From: a virus
DNA length: 35,727 nt
IMG/VR virus record: IMGVR_UViG_3300046475_000289
Direction: 5' to 3' (one strand)
The translations under genes were made by a program, and so were the position numbers. The number at the start of each line of letters is the position of its first letter. The stretch's first letter is position 1. The notes below the pieces were generated by a model that made no database searches, was not told the DNA's origin, and worked only from the letters and a program-made list of their open reading frames with translations. Shown piece by piece: positions 1 through 35,727 of the stretch.

Positions 1-91
1 CTCGACGCGGGCCGCCCGTCGGTTCTCCGCGCTCACTGGGTTCCTTACCTGTGCTCGGACGTCTTCGTGTTGGCGCAGTACGCGGCGCTTC
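1..91. repeat. 91-bp terminal overlap, identical to 35637-35727 (circular assembly overlap or terminal redundancy)
   Basis: Base-by-base comparison: ctcgacgcgggccgcccgtcggttctccgcgctcactgggttccttacctgtgctcggacgtcttcgtgttggcgcagtacgcggcgcttc at both ends. Confidence 0.97.
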
Positions 92-330
92 GCTTCGATC
101 TCGCGCAGCACCCTGGCCGGATCATGCTCGGCGATGAACGCGGCCTGCTCCACGGTCGGGTAACCCTCGTCGTAAGCCACGTGATAGCCGTCATGATCAC
201 CTGAGACGTGAGCACCATTCTCATCCCCGTGGTGGTGCCATCGCCCTTCCGCGCCCTCGCGAGCCGCCAGTGCGATCCGCTCGTCCTCGTCGAGCTGCTC
301 GCCGAGCCACCGCACCAGGTCTTCCGTCAT
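1..330 (-). CDS. DUF6221-like protein, first 110 codons; the gene continues across the window junction into 35636..35553
   Basis: ATG at 330; hand translation MTEDLVRWLGEQLDEDERIALAAREGAEGRWHHHGDENGAHVSGDHDGYHVAYDEGYPTVEQAAFIAEHDPARVLREIEAKRRVLRQHEDVRAQVRNPVSAENRRAARVE runs off position 1 without a stop. Motifs HDPARVLRE.EAKR and C-terminal PYADRPGYREEWRP are recalled from the actinobacterial DUF6221 family. Not in the ORF track because it is truncated by the window edge. Confidence 0.7.
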   Translation of the reverse strand, partial: MTEDLVRWLGEQLDEDERIALAAREGAEGRWHHHGDENGAHVSGDHDGYHVAYDEGYPTVEQAAFIAEHDPARVLREIEAKRRVLRQHEDVRAQVRNPVSAENRRAARVE

Positions 331-416
331 GGGGTCATCCTCTCGCAGTGGTGTCAGCCGCGGGCACAGTCTCGGGAGCCGGTTCCGGGGCGATCTGGGC
401 CGCTCGTGGAGGGGCC

Positions 417-503
417 CGAAACTCGAAACTTCGCAGGTGGGGTCCGATATCGGGGGCGAAACCGGTTTCGGATCAAGGCGAAACCACGGGCTTGATCCGA
501 AAC
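417..503. repeat. Array of CGAAAC(C) motifs (5 direct, 1 inverted) with an embedded palindrome and hairpin; candidate clt-like translocase recognition array or terminator/promoter region
   Basis: CGAAAC at 417, 424, 457, 479 and 498; inverted copy at 464-470 gives the perfect palindrome CGAAACCGGTTTCG (457-470); GGATCAAG (470-477) and CTTGATCC (491-498) form an 8-bp stem whose loop holds another copy. Confidence 0.8.
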
Positions 504-516
504 CGGGTTGAGGGCT

Positions 517-2613
517 CTACTCGGCGTCTTCTGCGGCGGGCAGATCGGCGTACCGGAGGCCCTTGGCGCCGCCGCAGCACTCCCGGATGGTGAGCTGCCG
601 GGTGGACACCTTGTGGGGCTTCAGGGCGGCGGACAGGGCCGTGGACGCTCCGGCGGCGTCCAGCTCGGTCCACGGCCGGTACAGGTCGGCCCGGTACGCG
701 GCGAGGGCCTCGACGAGCCGGTGCGAGTGGACGGTCTCGACTCCGTCGGGCCAGATGGCCCGCAGGTGGTCGAGGACCGTCTCGACGTCCTGCTCTTCGA
801 CCCGGGCGCCGACGGCCTGCCCGGTGAGGGTGCCGGCCGCGGTGCGCAGCGCCAGGGCGCGCTTGCCGATGTCCTCGGCCTCGGTCTGCTTGATGAACGC
901 GGCGCGGACGGTGATGCCTTCGCGGCCGCGGGCGAGGATGCCGGTGCCCTGCTCGTCGATGCTGATGTCGGTGGCCCGGAGGCCGCGGTCGTAGGCGCCG
1001 GTGCCGAGCACGTTGTTGTTGGCGCGCCAGTCCATGACGGCGAGGCACAGGCGGGTGCCGACGGAGCTGGAGACCGAGCTGGGCAGGCTCGGGGCGTCGG
1101 GGTTCTGGGTGAGCAGGATGAGGATGAGGCCGTAGGCGCGGCCCTTCTTGATGAGGCGGGTCGCGAGGGCGCTGGCCTCGTCCTTGTAGTCGGCGTGGGT
1201 GAACAGCTCCTGCACCTCGTCGATGACGATGACGCGCGGGCCGAGCTGCTGCTCCGGGTACTTCTCGGCGAGCGCCCGGGTGACGCGCCGGCCGTCGGGG
1301 ACCTCGGAGGCGGGCAGTCCCTTGATGAACTTGGCGCGCCGCTGGTACTCGGCGATCCCGGAGCGCATCCCGGCGAGGGCGGCCTCCAGGTCCTCGTCCT
1401 CGTCGCCGGACACGTACCGGTGGCAGACGGGCTTGACCGAGTCGAGGTCGCCAGAGCCCTTGAGTTCGTAGATCCACAGCTCGGCGGTGACGTCGAGGGC
1501 GACGCCGAGGACGATGGCGAGCGCGCACGACGTCTTGCCGGAGCCGGGGATGCCGCCGACGAGCAGGTTCGAGTACATGAGGGTGACCTCGATGAGGTTG
1601 CCGCGCGGGTCGAAGCCGTAGGGCAGCGGCTCGTACACGTCGGCCTGACCGCCCTTCATGAGCGGCCACAGCCTCCGGTCGGCCTTGGCCGGGTCCCGCT
1701 GGGCGACCCACAGCACGAGACGCCCGGGGTGGGCGGTGCGGTCGGCCGAGGGCCACACGGTGCTGATGGGGCGGCGCATGGCGGCGGCGAGCGCGGCCCG
1801 TTTCTCCAGGACGGCGGTGGCCTCGACACCGGGCGGCAGGTCGACCTCGGCGCGCCAGCCGGGCCCGTCGCGCATCACCTCGGAGGCGAACTCCACGCCC
1901 TTGCGGCCCTTCCTGCCCTCGATGCCGATCGCGGCGAGCGCGTCGAACACCTCGGTGGAGTCGAGGCGGCGGAGCACGTTGGTGGCGACGTAGCGGGTGA
2001 TGAGCGCCTTGTCGCCCTTCTTGCCGTTCAGTCCGGCCAGGGCGGCGGCGCCGATGTAGGCGGTGAGCGTCCAGCCGGGTACGAGGAACGTGCTGACGAG
2101 GGTGGTGATGCCGGTGGCGGTGGCGACGGCGATGGAGGCGACGCGGCGGGGCCGGACGCGGCGGGAGTGCTCGCGGGACAGGGACAGCCACGCTTCGATG
2201 TCGGCGGACGCGGCGGCCTTGGCCTCGACGGGTCGGGCCTCGGTGTCGGCGACCCAGCGGCCCCAGCGGACGATGAGCCGGCCGGTGCCGCGAGGGGCGC
2301 GCAGGAGCAGCCGCCCGAAGTAGACGGGGGCGCGGAGGGCATGGAAGCCGGCGACGTGTCCGTAGTAGGACGCGGTCCAGCGGACGGAGTTCGTGAAGGC
2401 GTCCCAGCGGCGGAGGGCCGGGGGGACGATGGGCGGGGCCTCGGCGAGGTAGGCCTGGCGTTCGGCGATCCATGTGCCGTCGGCGGCGGGCTCGGGGCGG
2501 TCGACGGGACGCGGCTCGGCGTTCTGGATGATGTCGAGGACGGTCTGCCGGACGCCAGCGTCCTCGGCGTCCTGAGGGGCGTCCTGTAGCGGCTTGATCA
2601 GGCTGTCGGTCAT
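517..2613 (-). CDS. FtsK/SpoIIIE-family DNA translocase, Streptomyces TraB-like
   Basis: 698 aa; Walker A GGIPGSGKTSCA, Walker B VIVIDEVQELF, LILLTQNP motif, hydrophobic N-terminal segment (IAVATATGITTLVSTFLVPGWTLTAYIGAAALAG), C-terminal wHTH-like tail (SHRLVEALAAYRADLY...KVSTRQL). Confidence 0.9.
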   Translation of the reverse strand: MTDSLIKPLQDAPQDAEDAGVRQTVLDIIQNAEPRPVDRPEPAADGTWIAERQAYLAEAPPIVPPALRRWDAFTNSVRWTASYYGHVAGFHALRAPVYFGRLLLRAPRGTGRLIVRWGRWVADTEARPVEAKAAASADIEAWLSLSREHSRRVRPRRVASIAVATATGITTLVSTFLVPGWTLTAYIGAAALAGLNGKKGDKALITRYVATNVLRRLDSTEVFDALAAIGIEGRKGRKGVEFASEVMRDGPGWRAEVDLPPGVEATAVLEKRAALAAAMRRPISTVWPSADRTAHPGRLVLWVAQRDPAKADRRLWPLMKGGQADVYEPLPYGFDPRGNLIEVTLMYSNLLVGGIPGSGKTSCALAIVLGVALDVTAELWIYELKGSGDLDSVKPVCHRYVSGDEDEDLEAALAGMRSGIAEYQRRAKFIKGLPASEVPDGRRVTRALAEKYPEQQLGPRVIVIDEVQELFTHADYKDEASALATRLIKKGRAYGLILILLTQNPDAPSLPSSVSSSVGTRLCLAVMDWRANNNVLGTGAYDRGLRATDISIDEQGTGILARGREGITVRAAFIKQTEAEDIGKRALALRTAAGTLTGQAVGARVEEQDVETVLDHLRAIWPDGVETVHSHRLVEALAAYRADLYRPWTELDAAGASTALSAALKPHKVSTRQLTIRECCGGAKGLRYADLPAAEDAE

Positions 2614-13359: not shown

Positions 13360-14163
13360 ATGAAGGATGAGCGCAGTTCAACGCCAGCCAACGAACCCGA
13401 TCTGGATGCGGACGCCCTACGTGTGGCGTTGGGTCGCCGCATGAGGATGGCGAGGGTGAACCTAGGTCTCTCTCAACAGGCCGTAGCTGACGCGATGATG
13501 GGGCGCGGCTTCAGTTGGCGGCAGACCACGGTGGCCAAGACAGAGGCGGCCGATAGGCCGGCCCTTTTCACGGAAGTCGTGGCACTCTCATCGATTCTGA
13601 AGCGGGAGCTGAGCTATTTCCTAAGCGGGCGGACTGCGCTAGACGAGGTGAAGGAGGAGTTGCAACAACAGACGAACGATCTGAAGCATCAGATGGACCA
13701 CGCAAAGAGTCAGCTCGCCTACATCGAATCGAATCTAGCGAAAGCTGTCGTGGTTGAGGGGGTCATGCTGGCCATCGTTGAATTCTCTTACACGCTGGAC
13801 ACGTCACGGCTAAAGCAATCTTTCGAGGCTTTCTCGCAAAGCCGTGCGTTCGATGTTCCTTCGCTGAAGCGCGTGCTTGATGCCGCAGGAGTACCAGCCC
13901 ACCAGGTAGAAGAGGTGGATCAGATGGGGCTGACTCATGCGGCCCGAGAGGTAAAGGAGAAGGGGGTGACGGGCCCGAGCGAGTGGTTGCCGGGGTTCGG
14001 AGATAAGGAGATTCCTCTTTCGGCGGCGCACTACCTGGAAACAGGAAAGTCTCCTACCTACTTTCTCGACTACCTGCGTCGCCGTGAGACATACGTGAAC
14101 ACTGTGTGTCCGCTGCTAGTCGACGACGTCATCGACTGGGTCGAATCGAGGAATCATCCTTGA
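13360..14163 (+). CDS. XRE-family HTH protein with uncharacterised C-terminal domain; candidate prophage (CI-like) repressor
   Basis: LGRRMRMARVNLGLSQQAVADAMMGRGFSWRQTTVAKTEAADRPALFTEVVALSSIL is a classic HTH_XRE. Plus strand, between int and the early operon. Clearly lower GC and many A/T-ending and CTA codons. Alternative GTG start at 13336. Confidence 0.8.
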   Translation: MKDERSSTPANEPDLDADALRVALGRRMRMARVNLGLSQQAVADAMMGRGFSWRQTTVAKTEAADRPALFTEVVALSSILKRELSYFLSGRTALDEVKEELQQQTNDLKHQMDHAKSQLAYIESNLAKAVVVEGVMLAIVEFSYTLDTSRLKQSFEAFSQSRAFDVPSLKRVLDAAGVPAHQVEEVDQMGLTHAAREVKEKGVTGPSEWLPGFGDKEIPLSAAHYLETGKSPTYFLDYLRRRETYVNTVCPLLVDDVIDWVESRNHP

Positions 14164-15665
14164 GTGCTGCGCCTTTTCCATGCGAAATGCACAGCGTCGT
14201 AGTCGAAGTACCCGCCGTCGGGCATGCGCCCCGACCGCGGCTTGACCAGCGTGACGACGAGCGCCGCCCGCAGCACGTTGCGCTTCTGCTCCAGCAGCAA
14301 CGCCTTCCACGCCTTCCGCACATCCGGCGCGCCGACCAGGCCGACGAGCGGGTCCACCATCGCCGCACGCGCCAACTGGTGCGTCACCCCGTCGAGCTGC
14401 GCGCGGGCCGTCTCCATGCCCTCGGTGAACGGGCCCAGCTCCAACTGGCCCGCACCGAACAGACCGGCCAGGTCGGTCATCCGCCGGCGGATCCGCTCGC
14501 TCTCCGCCTGCAACCCGGCAACGTCCACGTCGTCCGGACCGGGCAGCAACAGGTCCTCCGCGTCGTCGCGTGACAGCCGCTCGACGATCGTGTCCTCGAC
14601 GTACTGGTCGACGACCTCGGCCCGCCGCCCGCCGCCGTGCCCGGTCGGACACTTGTAGCTCGGGTACTGCCGGCCACCGGACTGGGTCACCGTCATGCCC
14701 TGACCGCAGTCCCGGCCGCACAGGTACAGCAGCGAGCCCACCCACTTCGGCTGGGCCCCGCGGTTCGAGGTACGTGACGGGTCGGACAGGATCGCCACAA
14801 CGGCCCTGAACTTCTCCTCCGGGACGATCGGCGCCCACTGTCCGGGCCCGACCTCCTCGCCCCTGTAGACCGCGATCCCGGCGTTCCTCGGGCGCTTCAG
14901 CATGTCCCGCAGATCCTGGTGGGTGATCGCGTTCCCGCGGGTGGTGGTGAGCCCCTTGTCCGTGCACCACTTCACGCAGCTGCGGATGGACCCGCCGGAC
15001 AGGATGGTGTCCGTCCACTGCCGCAGCGCCTCGGCCTCCTCGGGCACGACCTTGTTCGTGTCGAGGACGGGCACCTCGAGTTCCTCGCCGGTCGCCCGGT
15101 CGACCCGCTTCTGCGTCTCCCCGGTGGGTACGCCCCAGCCGAACGGGCGGGTGCCGCCCGCCCATTCGCCGGCCATGGCCTTCTGCTGCCGGGCGCGGGC
15201 GACGCGGTGGCCCTTGTGCTCGGACTCCTGGCGGGCGACGGCGCCGAGGATCCGCGCGGTCATCCGCCCGGACGGCGTGGCGAGGTCGACGGTCCCGGCC
15301 TGCACGGTGTGCGTGGCGATGCCGCGGCGCTCGGACAGGGCGATGTACTTCTCCAGCTCCGTCGGGCTGCGGTGGAGCCGGTCGGTGTGCCAGGTGATGA
15401 CGATGGTGGCGGTGCCCTGCTCCAGGTCGTCGAGCATGCGCAGGTAGTCCTTGCGCTTCTTGCCGCTGTAGGCGGACACGTCGTTGTCGACGTACACCTC
15501 GACGACGTTCCAGCCGTTGCGTTCTGCGAGGGCTTCGCAGTCCTGGCGCTGTCGCTCGACGCCGAGGCCGGCGCCGGTGCGGTCCTGGCTGATGCGGCAG
15601 TAGATGACGGCGCGGGTCTTGGTGCCTGCGGCAACGTCGACGGCGGCGCGGAGAGTTGGGCTCAT
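14154..15665 (-). CDS. int: Large serine recombinase (phage integrase)
   Basis: ATG at 15665; resolvase domain AVIYCRISQDRTGAGLGVERQ (catalytic Ser), ITWHTDRLHRS, recombinase domain, zinc-ribbon CGRDCGQGMTV..YKCPTGHGG, coiled-coil C-terminus; 503 aa. Confidence 0.92.
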   Translation of the reverse strand: MSPTLRAAVDVAAGTKTRAVIYCRISQDRTGAGLGVERQRQDCEALAERNGWNVVEVYVDNDVSAYSGKKRKDYLRMLDDLEQGTATIVITWHTDRLHRSPTELEKYIALSERRGIATHTVQAGTVDLATPSGRMTARILGAVARQESEHKGHRVARARQQKAMAGEWAGGTRPFGWGVPTGETQKRVDRATGEELEVPVLDTNKVVPEEAEALRQWTDTILSGGSIRSCVKWCTDKGLTTTRGNAITHQDLRDMLKRPRNAGIAVYRGEEVGPGQWAPIVPEEKFRAVVAILSDPSRTSNRGAQPKWVGSLLYLCGRDCGQGMTVTQSGGRQYPSYKCPTGHGGGRRAEVVDQYVEDTIVERLSRDDAEDLLLPGPDDVDVAGLQAESERIRRRMTDLAGLFGAGQLELGPFTEGMETARAQLDGVTHQLARAAMVDPLVGLVGAPDVRKAWKALLLEQKRNVLRAALVVTLVKPRSGRMPDGGYFDYDAVHFAWKRRSTQG

Positions 15666-15684
15666 GCTCTGAGTCTGCACCCGT

Positions 15685-15738
15685 AGTGGTGTCACTGTCT
15701 CAGGTTCGGGAACCCCAATATGGCTTCGTGCCACCACT
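15685..15738. other. Candidate attP: 54-bp imperfect inverted repeat centred on AA/TT, 20 bp upstream of int
   Basis: Outer arms AGTGGTGtCAC (15685-15695) and GTGcCACCACT (15728-15738); inner TTCGGG-AA-CCCCAA. 17 of 27 positions are symmetric by hand alignment. Architecture resembles known serine-integrase attP sites. Confidence 0.4.
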
Positions 15739-15757
15739 GGAAAGATCTTGCTCGAAA

Positions 15758-15779
15758 GGGTGGGCATTGGTGCCCACCC
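15758..15779 (-). terminator. 9-bp perfect palindrome GGGTGGGCA-TTGG-TGCCCACCC (hairpin terminator, operator, or alternative attP core)
   Basis: Perfect arms at 15758-15766 and 15771-15779; on the minus strand it is followed by TTTCGAGC. Confidence 0.4.
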
Positions 15780-15857
15780 ATGCCCTTGACCTGCGCTTAT
15801 GTCGCCGATTTCCACAGCCTGTGGGCACGCCTTCGAATCCAAGGTTGGGTGCAAAAC

Positions 15858-15889
15858 GGCCCCGGCCGGATCGGCGTCCGGCCGGGGCC
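15858..15889 (-). terminator. Rho-independent terminator of the micro-ORF operon
   Basis: ggccccggccgga (15858-15870) pairs with tccggccggggcc (15877-15889), 6-nt loop, followed on the minus strand by GTTTTGC. Confidence 0.7.
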
Positions 15890-15934
15890 TGGTCCCGCCC
15901 GCCCCCAATGGGCACGGGGTACGGGGCGGGCGGT

Positions 15935-16497: not shown

Positions 16498-16521
16498 CCC
16501 TAGGTAGCTAGGGTAGCTAGG
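16498..16521. promoter_or_regulatory. CTAG-rich operator-like element in the divergent X1 / GntR-like intergenic region
   Basis: CCCTAG-GTAG-CTAGGG near-palindrome (16498-16513, 14 of 16 symmetric) overlapping the tandem 9-mers GGTAGCTAG GGTAGCTAG (16503-16520); a fourth CTAG lies at 16563-16566. Confidence 0.5.
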
Positions 16522-16576
16522 CGTGTCAGGCAATCTCGTCTCGCCGGGTAGGCCTGTCCTGCCTAGCGTCGAGATC

Positions 16577-16813
16577 ATGGACTGGAAGCCGGACATCCCG
16601 CGGTGGCGACAGGTGTACGAGGTGATCGAGGCGCGGATCGCGGACGGAACGTATCCGCCGGGCGAGCAGCTGCCGGGCGTGCTGGCCCTGCACGGCGAGT
16701 TCGGGATCGCGCAGATGACCGCCCGCCGGGTGCTCTCCGAGCTGAGGGACGCGGGCCTCGCACAGATGCAGCCGGGCATCGGCACGTTCGTCACCGAGCT
16801 GCCCAAGCCGTAA
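16577..16813 (+). CDS. Stand-alone GntR-type winged-HTH protein (78 aa, no effector domain)
   Basis: RQVYEVIEARIADGTYPPGEQLPGVLALHGEFGIAQMTARRVLSELRDAGLAQMQPGIGTFV fits the GntR N-terminal domain pattern; alternative GTG start at 16523. Confidence 0.75.
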   Translation: MDWKPDIPRWRQVYEVIEARIADGTYPPGEQLPGVLALHGEFGIAQMTARRVLSELRDAGLAQMQPGIGTFVTELPKP

Positions 16814-35338: not shown

Positions 35339-35539
35339 TCAAGCGGACTGGGGCGAGGCGCGCCGGGCGACGAGAGCGGCGACGTCCTGCACGGCGTACC
35401 AGGGCTGTCGCTCGGTGCCGCCGGAGCGGGAGAGCTGGCCTCGCTGGACGAGCTTGCGGACGGCCGGGAGGCCGACGCCGAGGGTGCGGGCGGTCTGGTG
35501 GGCGGTGAGGTGGCCGGGCCGGATGAGCTGTGACTCCAT
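35339..35539 (-). CDS. Excisionase-type HTH (HTH_17-like) DNA-binding protein (66 aa)
   Basis: LTAHQTARTLGVGLPAVRKLVQRGQLSRSGGTERQPWYAVQDVAALV fits the HTH_17 pattern. Confidence 0.65.
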   Translation of the reverse strand: MESQLIRPGHLTAHQTARTLGVGLPAVRKLVQRGQLSRSGGTERQPWYAVQDVAALVARRASPQSA

Positions 35540-35552
35540 GCCCCCATGATGT

Positions 35553-35727
35553 CTACGGCCGCCACTCCTCGCGGTATCCGGGCCTGTCCGCGTAGGGCAT
35601 GGCGAGCAGGCGCATCACGTCTTCCAGCGCGCCTTGCTCGACGCGGGCCGCCCGTCGGTTCTCCGCGCTCACTGGGTTCCTTACCTGTGCTCGGACGTCT
35701 TCGTGTTGGCGCAGTACGCGGCGCTTC
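35553..35727 (-). CDS. C-terminal part of the DUF6221-like gene that starts at 330 (35637-35727 duplicates 1-91)
   Basis: In-frame continuation QGALEDVMRLLAMPYADRPGYREEWRP, stop TAG at 35553-35555; 84 unique nt + 330 nt = 414 nt (137 aa). Confidence 0.7.
   Translation of the reverse strand, partial: KRRVLRQHEDVRAQVRNPVSAENRRAARVEQGALEDVMRLLAMPYADRPGYREEWRP
35637..35727. repeat. 91-bp terminal overlap, identical to 1-91
   Basis: Direct comparison of both ends. Confidence 0.97.

Follow-up and report, generated by a model that had tools for sequence, protein, structure and literature searches.

Conjugal transfer of Streptomyces plasmids involves the translocase TraB, which acts at a site termed clt. 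The repeats downstream of traB in plasmid pSVH1 are the published clt and consist of 8-bp words bound by TraB through its C-terminal winged helix, according to the passages on this plasmid in three accounts (PMC4170104, PMC3583192, PMC4447253). The clt sites of pIJ101, pJV1, and pWTY27, with TraA footprints, are summarized in the part of one of these accounts that treats them (PMC3583192). A Streptomyces plasmid-phage, pZL12, is described in the relevant sections of two papers as making phage particles and as needing a tra gene for conjugal transfer (PMC4487206, PMC3583192). FtsK-like genes are often noted in actinobacteriophage genomes with no function assigned (e.g., in the gene descriptions of PMC13587820), and no clt site has been described for pSAM2, the archetype of the integrative and conjugative elements of actinomycetes (AICEs), according to the portion of a paper that covers it (PMC9513070). 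In a limited literature search, we came across no account of a clt-like array next to the FtsK-like genes of Streptomyces phages. Here, we describe a candidate for such an array at positions 416 to 506 of IMG/VR virus record IMGVR_UViG_3300046475_000289, a stretch of 35,727 nucleotides referred to below as the window. It lies directly 3′ of a gene for an FtsK/SpoIIIE-type (TraB-like) double-stranded DNA (dsDNA) translocase.

On balance, positions 416 to 506 are probably a recognition array of the clt type that acts in cis for the adjacent translocase and overlaps a hairpin resembling a terminator. The array is locally enriched in one word, conserved, and fixed in position; its words are specific to translocase lineages, and they co-vary with the translocase and its tail.

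Results

The translocase gene (517..2613, minus strand; 698 aa; Pfam PF01580, E 1.1e-6) has its stop codon at 517 to 519, and the repeats follow at once. CGAAAC occurs on the plus strand at 417, 424, 457, 479, and 498, and the inverted form GTTTCG lies at 465 to 470; these coordinates agree with a preliminary description, made from the letters of the window, that had placed five direct copies and one inverted copy at 417 to 503. Both strands of the whole window contain nine copies, six of which fall inside these 87 bp and three elsewhere. Dinucleotide-preserving shuffles gave an expected count of 12.7 ± 3.5, so the signal is the clustering and not the total. When every strand-collapsed 6-, 7-, and 8-mer was scanned over the whole window, the CGAAAC array was the most significant k-mer cluster of the 35.7 kb (Poisson p ~1e-15), in keeping with the strong local enrichment that had been claimed. 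The unit proposed at that time, CGAAAC(C), rests on real hexamer copies but is better given as the 8-mer RGTTTCGN in the translocase sense, present as GGTTTCGG (twice), GGTTTCGC (twice), AGTTTCGA, and AGTTTCGG. The array region has a G+C content of 62%.

The copy nearest the translocase stop, GGTTTCGG (497..504, minus strand), forms the proximal part of the adjoining hairpin arm and is invariant in 27 distinct relatives. The last two copies form a tandem pair, AGTTTCGA-GTTTCGG, with a 7-bp period (416..430, minus strand). An inverted copy at 464 to 471 and a direct copy at 456 to 463 together make the perfect 14-bp palindrome CGAAACCGGTTTCG (457..470), which had already been recognized and which is kept in all loci of the window's translocase family, down to ~51 to 52% overall identity. 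A second repeated element is the near-invariant palindrome CCGATATCGG (444..453), which is conserved as well as the main motif. In some relatives, among them L136, L161, and L195 (L-numbers denote comparative translocase/array loci), GATATCGG is duplicated and occupies the site of a GTTTCG copy (GATATCGGGTTTCGG replacing AGTTTCGAGTTTCGG), and this replacement suggests that CCGATATCGG may be a variant half-site of the same recognition word. The element CACCTGC (433..439, minus strand; GCAGGTG on the plus strand) is the window's version of a central GACCTGC element. Elements resembling GACCTGC(R)CAAA lie within or beside the arrays of many lineages (L059, L080, L100, and L053), and pSVH1 (L047) also has a GACCTGC-type element, ~150 nt beyond the stop codon of traB. 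The SpdA sps palindrome CGTCACGTGACG (PMC4170104, section on this element) was considered and is not the element conserved here.

Two motif copies are the proximal arms of a perfect 16-bp inverted repeat, CCGGTTTCGGATCAAG (462 to 477) and CTTGATCCGAAACCGG (491 to 506), separated by a 13-nt loop (478 to 490); this structure, spanning 462..506, replaces the hairpin with an 8-bp stem at 470 to 498 that had been described earlier. The motif copy reported in the loop is present in the window at 479 (as an 8-mer, GGTTTCGC, 478..485, minus strand), but most relatives have GGTTTCAC at this place, and an exact copy is not conserved. The 16-bp stem dominates the RNA folding ensemble in the translocase sense. 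Among 27 distinct sequences, the proximal 10 pairs, which are the motif itself, are invariant or nearly so, and five of the six distal pairs have changed on both sides. Overall, 93.5% of cells are paired, and the observed value was reached in 0 of 500 shuffles; together with the covariation of the distal pairs, this points to selection on pairing ability beyond the motif sequence itself. Because G·U-type and A·C-type mismatches are equally frequent (9 versus 8), wobble strand bias does not distinguish an RNA hairpin from a DNA hairpin. No T-tract follows the stem. Consensus scans called neither a terminator nor a sigma-70-like promoter at the array; the stem was missed by the terminator scan because only UUUCG follows it, and the loop is 13 nt long. 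The region matched no Rfam family, and a known RNA family was rejected as an explanation. Since the distal stem covaries, the stem probably also ends the translocase transcript. Such a role at the mRNA end fits its position and is compatible with the motif copies as predicted protein-binding sites.

A protein-guided scan of viral contigs yielded 44 loci, 40 of which, 6 to 14 kb long, are close relatives (64 to 94% translocase identity). GTTTCG/CGAAAC copies lie at fixed offsets after the translocase stop in all 40. In most of them, the array accounts for five of the 5 to 10 copies per locus; L037 has only three array copies, and L031 has four. Alignment of these relatives shows the motif copies and CCGATATCGG to be invariant, the hairpin tip variable, and the following stretch poorly conserved. 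Column conservation is 0.90 in the array, 0.89 in the last 57 nt of the coding sequence, and 0.70 to 0.78 in flanking noncoding DNA.

The reverse search started from the DNA pattern GAAACCGGTTTCGNCCNNGATA (19 fixed bases) and found 43 arrays in viral contigs; all 42 that had enough upstream sequence sit 51 to 62 nt behind a window-family translocase (52 to 96% identity). Among cellular genomes, searched with one genome per species (185,579 species), the pattern matched 60 times. The 44 to 45 matches with at least three copies all belong to Streptomyces, Actinacidiphila, Nocardiopsis, or an uncultured actinomycete and adjoin a window-family translocase wherever this was testable. The other 15 come from unrelated phyla, hold one to three copies, and have no translocase; we read them as chance matches because about this number is expected for 19 fixed bases. 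A count of the motif across the window and related genomes, as the preliminary description had suggested, thus finds it locally enriched, rare elsewhere, and arrayed beside every homologous translocase found. Two outcomes that would have spoken against that description, a lack of enrichment and a lack of conservation beside homologous translocases, were looked for computationally, and neither was found.

Three genomes have an extra small gene between traB and an otherwise intact array, namely, L191 and L213 (354 nt) and L203 (583 nt). The inserted gene encodes a Cys-rich protein of ~100 aa in L191 and a protein of ~170 aa in L203, and a similar insertion is present in another locus (L046:5954-6196). 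The stretch between the translocase gene and the array has the look of an insertion hot spot for moron-like genes.

At the same position, about ten diverged translocase lineages show repeated 6- to 9-mers, a different one in each. In plasmid NZ_CP107792 (40% translocase identity), two copies of GCTATCGATAGC in an 18-bp perfect inverted repeat, together with GATAGCGG and CATAGCGG, come directly after the stop; the word of this plasmid and its relatives is GATAGC/CTAGC. In the Pseudonocardia plasmid pPaSha2, one small open reading frame precedes the repeats, which are copies of GCTACA, with the palindrome GCTACATGTAGC among them. Phage-like contigs L041 to L044 (30% identity) have four to six copies of TAGAGGGG, including a tandem pair. 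A gene for a 66-aa helix-turn-helix (HTH) protein served as the anchor for collecting 80 further loci, and the words found upstream of it in further lineages are GGGAGGC, CAGGGAGG, CAGTGA, TGACGTCAG, and CTAGNCCTAGC. Of 46 distinct translocase loci, 38 have their most significant 6-mer cluster, judged over the whole locus, no more than 400 nt past the translocase stop.

As a positive control, pSVH1 was put through the same scan, which returned five direct copies of GACCCGGA at +5 to +91 after traB and one inverted copy (GACCCGG) at +108. The scan thereby recovers the published clt, and the clt-like position and architecture that had been proposed for the window are supported. A change of DNA-binding specificity predicts different words at the same position in diverged lineages. 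This is the pattern seen, and it agrees with the earlier suggestion that the motif differs because the specificity does.

The genes that track the word were sought within ±6 kb of traB, with the addition of a gene for a GntR regulator (16523-16813). The 61-, 68-, and 121-aa genes upstream of traB (g61, g68, and g121), the HTH gene, and g212 occur at 41 to 86% identity beside other translocase lineages with other arrays, and g61, g121, and g315 are missing from loci that carry the window-family translocase and the CGAAAC array. A 93 to 95% identical GntR accompanies CGAAAC arrays in some contigs and TAGAGGGG arrays in others. When DUF6221 or other genes come between traB and the HTH gene, the array keeps to the traB side. 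By these comparisons, the translocase is the only tested gene that co-varies with the word, and within it the tail does so best. The motif is kept in L136 and L148, where motor identity is 50 to 53% and the last 41 aa, the best-conserved part of the protein in such relatives, are 76 to 78% identical. In L037, motor identity is 79% and that of the last 41 aa is 54%, and the array is rearranged to three copies. Other lineages have lower motor identity, 27 to 39% identity in the last 41 aa, and different words.

Two regulatory assignments were rejected. An operator of the GntR regulator does not fit, as there are no motif copies near its gene and the gene has a repeat of its own; GntR is not the reader of the array because near-identical GntR proteins occur in relatives with different arrays. 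A promoter or operator of the downstream HTH gene does not fit either, as the array stays with traB despite inserted genes and the HTH protein is common to lineages with different words.

In the translocase, residues 237 to 562 form the motor and match the FtsK structure 2iuu in the PDB (E 1.5e-6). A hydrophobic segment at residues ~158 to 197, identified by sequence inspection (mean Kyte-Doolittle value of 1.6 to 1.7 over 19 aa), qualifies as an N-terminal membrane-associated segment. The best matches among deposited replicons (tblastn) are actinomycete plasmid translocases; that of NZ_CP107792, a Streptomyces plasmid, is 40% identical over 88% of the query, and that of pPaSha2 is ~40% identical. 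TraB of pSVH1 is 31% identical over the motor, and the sole match in a deposited phage is phage Gilgamesh (25%).

The C-terminal tail (~residues 600 to 698; 520..816, minus strand) is a putative winged-helix, DNA-reading domain. A first AlphaFold2 model from a shallow alignment had a predicted local distance difference test (pLDDT) score of 68, and a second model from a more diverse alignment scored 74.7, with 81 to 89 in the core. The modeled order of helix, strand, three helices, and two strands is a winged-helix topology. Foldseek neighbors of the tail are mostly winged-helix DNA binders: the extended winged helix (eWH) of TFIIIC tau138, Fur, TubR, PadR, MarR, the KAT6A winged helix bound to DNA, ORC, and MukE. 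A weak match to DUF3631 was present in three of nine tails.

Carrier genome and gene context

Bases 1 to 91 and 35637 to 35727 are identical, which makes the window a complete genome, circular or terminally redundant, of 35,636 bp. It belongs to a tailed temperate phage and not to a plasmid, with genes for small and large terminase subunits, portal, major capsid protein, tape measure, minor tail proteins, and an endolysin-like protein, together with a serine integrase (14154-15908), a primase, a helicase, and a single-stranded DNA-binding protein (SSB). No tRNA genes were found in the window. All credible genes lie on the minus strand except that of GntR, a 96-aa GntR/HutC-type winged-helix regulator (16523-16813, plus strand). 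The TraR/KorA repressors of plasmid tra genes are of the same GntR-type family, which makes this regulator of interest. A repeat, CCTAGGTAGCTAGGGTAGCTAGG, at 16499 to 16521, immediately upstream of the GntR gene, is probably the operator of that regulator.

The gene for a DUF6221 protein (Pfam PF19730, E 2e-20) seems to be cut at position 1; given the 91-bp terminal overlap, it continues at the other end, so that its 5′ part (1..330, minus strand) wraps the circle to a stop at 35553. The gene at this downstream position varies among relatives, and the array is unchanged. The 66-aa HTH gene (MESQLIRPGHLTAHQ...; 35339..35539, minus strand) comes directly after the array in most relatives. On the circular map of the window, the order after the array is DUF6221, the 66-aa HTH protein, a small membrane protein, an HNH endonuclease, a P-loop protein, and the terminase genes. 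On the other side of the translocase gene, the stretch separating its start codon (2613) from the 61-aa gene holds a second G+C-rich inverted repeat, GGGGACGGCG/CGCCGTCCCC (2653 to 2689). In several relatives (L002:~4538, L041:~1080, and L044:~4622), CGGGACG/CCGGGACG forms a cluster of its own, with four to five copies in 120 nt, ~1.4 to 1.5 kb upstream of the translocase start.

The closest isolated phage by large terminase is at most 42% identical among deposited phages, and no DNA-level relatives were found among deposited plasmids and phages except for a segment of the SSB gene. Translocase homologs with 83 to 100% identity number in the hundreds in Streptomyces genomes, including the chromosomes of S. 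scabiei and S. hygroscopicus. With hundreds of such homologs and no close isolated relative, the phage family is a common prophage group that is so far undescribed.

Discussion

In the mechanism that we propose, five to six copies of the 8-bp word RGTTTCGN and the related palindrome CCGATATCGG, placed directly 3′ of the translocase gene, would be read as clustered words by the C-terminal winged-helix-like tails of a hexameric translocase. The ring would load at this single site on the circular 35.6-kb phage genome and pump the double-stranded genome through a membrane or septal pore, as TraB does at clt in Streptomyces plasmids. The first two inverted copies would serve as the base of the hairpin, and the same stretch would probably end the translocase transcript. 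Physical binding and loading, like the biological purpose, are what we infer. The likely purpose would be to move the phage genome from one hypha or hyphal compartment to another with no need of particles.

Several findings weigh against the proposal that the array is a recognition site for the translocase. The tail model is of moderate quality and has no significant Foldseek match (best E 0.28). The tail has no match to Pfam FtsK_gamma and none to FtsK gamma by sequence or fold, no significant sequence similarity to the tail of pSVH1 TraB (hhalign E 0.16), and no sequence match among PDB chains; sequence searches thus failed to prove it to be an FtsK-gamma or pSVH1-type winged HTH domain. The winged-helix assignment made in the preliminary description is therefore plausible and not established: the model topology fits, and a significant fold match is lacking. 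In L053/L124-type loci (L053:3075-3760 and L124:2915-3700), the same downstream HTH gene and a comparable array are present with no ATPase motor within 4 kb. The array there consists of two copies of GTCTACCGC inside the 3′ end of the gene, followed by TGACCTGC and then five copies of CATCTACC. The position of the translocase is held by a 196- to 237-aa membrane protein whose C terminus resembles the translocase tail, by a weak match (hhalign E 0.07); if this likeness is real, the arrays may be linked to the tail domain rather than to the motor. The co-variation comparison drew on the neighborhood of traB and GntR. The covarying hairpin, directly after the stop or after the inserted gene in L191, L203, and L213, could itself be a terminator, and a terminator alone would explain the position of the array with no binding by the translocase. 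Finally, no matches to spd-related families were found among the genes beside traB, and the carrier is a tailed phage and neither a plasmid nor an AICE. This carrier differs from that of the Streptomyces plasmid precedent invoked earlier, a difference that changes what the module is for.

Among the other explanations, the one that survives best is that the array is transcriptional punctuation only. The hairpin would terminate the translocase operon, and the repeats would be operators for another lineage-specific regulator or alternative RNA pairings that control DUF6221, HTH, HNH, and terminase. We regard this as unlikely, although a good deal accords with it: the stop codon is followed immediately by the strong hairpin with its compensatory changes, insertion of extra genes after traB leaves the array intact behind them, the array separates the early genes from those for packaging and structure, and any of several GUUUCG copies could serve as partner to a single CGAAAC. 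Termination can, however, coexist with clt-like recognition. The motif copies reach well past the hairpin, and the motif follows the translocase lineage and not the downstream gene, the small neighbors, or GntR. The same architecture follows traB in true plasmids, which have no late operon, and the failure to find a T-tract terminator, a sigma-70-like promoter, or an Rfam family, as well as the balanced mismatches, also counts against a purely transcriptional role.

We find it quite improbable that Rep or a centromere-binding protein binds the repeats as replication-origin iterons or as a centromere-like partition site. Short direct and inverted repeats are typical of iteron origins, such as the iteron of pWTY27 in the passage that describes it (PMC3583192), the NZ_CP107792 array lies ~1.6 kb upstream of a primase-polymerase gene, and TubR-type winged-helix centromere binders are among the weak fold matches of the tail. 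Against this stand the base composition of the array, which includes no A+T-rich unwinding stretch, the distance of 6 to 8 kb to the phage primase and helicase genes, and the failure to detect par genes. Elements that differ in their replication modules also keep the array at a fixed position behind the translocase stop, and the pSVH1 equivalent of the array is an experimentally defined clt.

A packaging signal (cos/pac), with repeats bound by the small terminase and CCGATATCGG as the nicking site, is hardly credible. In its favor, the array does contain a symmetric element, and the HNH gene and the terminase genes lie on the same strand of the circle, ~1.2 kb and 2.5 kb downstream of it, respectively. 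Against it, the contigs of two independent relatives (L012 and L013) share an end point 1361 nt downstream of traB, which suggests that the physical ends are there, immediately past the HNH gene; traB of plasmids lacking a terminase has equivalent arrays behind it; and the motif changes with the translocase lineage. We ruled it out as the main explanation on the first two of these grounds. Each alternative is weakened because equivalent arrays follow traB in plain plasmids and because the word follows the translocase and not the other genes tested.

If clt-like recognition holds, a wider picture may be sketched tentatively. Widespread tailed temperate phages of Streptomyces might carry a complete TraB-clt module, so that their genome could be pumped as naked dsDNA into neighboring hyphae or across cross-walls, a particle-free second route for what might be called a conjugative phage. 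Pairs of tail and array might then make up an exchangeable addressing code of about ten words that extends to the motorless membrane proteins.

A cognate clt-like site beside an FtsK-like phage gene would supply a mechanism open to testing where there has been only a vague annotation. The pump would act on the phage genome itself, which would make transduction and Streptomyces-type conjugation harder to tell apart and bear on the spread of prophages through mycelia and between strains. About ten lineages with different 6- to 9-bp words at a fixed position provide a library for decoding the DNA specificity of TraB-type winged-helix tails, one that includes natural cases in which tail and motor have diverged at different rates. 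The comparative set is also useful for finding clt sites in AICEs.

Of the described systems, FtsK-KOPS and SpoIIIE-SRS share with the window a hexameric FtsK-family motor and, if the tail is read correctly here, a C-terminal winged-helix domain that reads an 8-bp word for loading. KOPS and SRS are dispersed and strand skewed over the chromosome, whereas the word of the window is concentrated at one ~90-bp site, with three other copies in 35.6 kb, and the FtsK gamma domain was not matched in the window translocase. As far as it is described in the sources cited above, pZL12 offers a precedent for a phage/conjugation hybrid in Streptomyces; by that description, to which the likeness is confined, it is a ~90-kb autonomously replicating plasmid with parAB, in contrast to the 35.6-kb integrase-carrying phage studied here.

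The clt sites of pIJ101, pJV1, and pWTY27, as outlined in the corresponding part of one source (PMC3583192), consist likewise of short direct and imperfect inverted repeats, and that of pWTY27 adjoins or overlaps the 3′ end of the tra gene. The 5-bp repeat of pIJ101, G(C/A)AAC, resembles the GAAAC core found here, a likeness between short words only. These sites differ from that of the window in motif and copy number, and by the same outline the pIJ101 clt lies near korB and not behind the tra gene.

The closest known system, judged by sequence comparison, is TraB-clt of Streptomyces plasmids, of which pSVH1 is best studied. The window and its relatives have the homologous motor, the membrane segment, the repeats clustered at the 3′ end of the gene, and the words specific to each lineage. 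In pSVH1, too, copies of one 8-bp word, five direct and one inverted, cluster immediately behind an FtsK-like gene, and the motif is likewise element specific and accompanied by a central GACCTGC-type element beside the repeats. The words themselves differ (GGTTTCGG in the window and GACCCGGA in pSVH1), and the window adds a structured 16-bp hairpin formed from two copies and a perfect palindrome formed from one pair. Binding by TraB is known for pSVH1, whereas the site in the window is known from its sequence alone. The carriers are a 12.6-kb plasmid with spd genes in the one case and a 35.6-kb tailed temperate phage with a serine integrase in the other. We read the array as a putative clt-type site with a new word, and it is the unusual carrier that gives it its interest.

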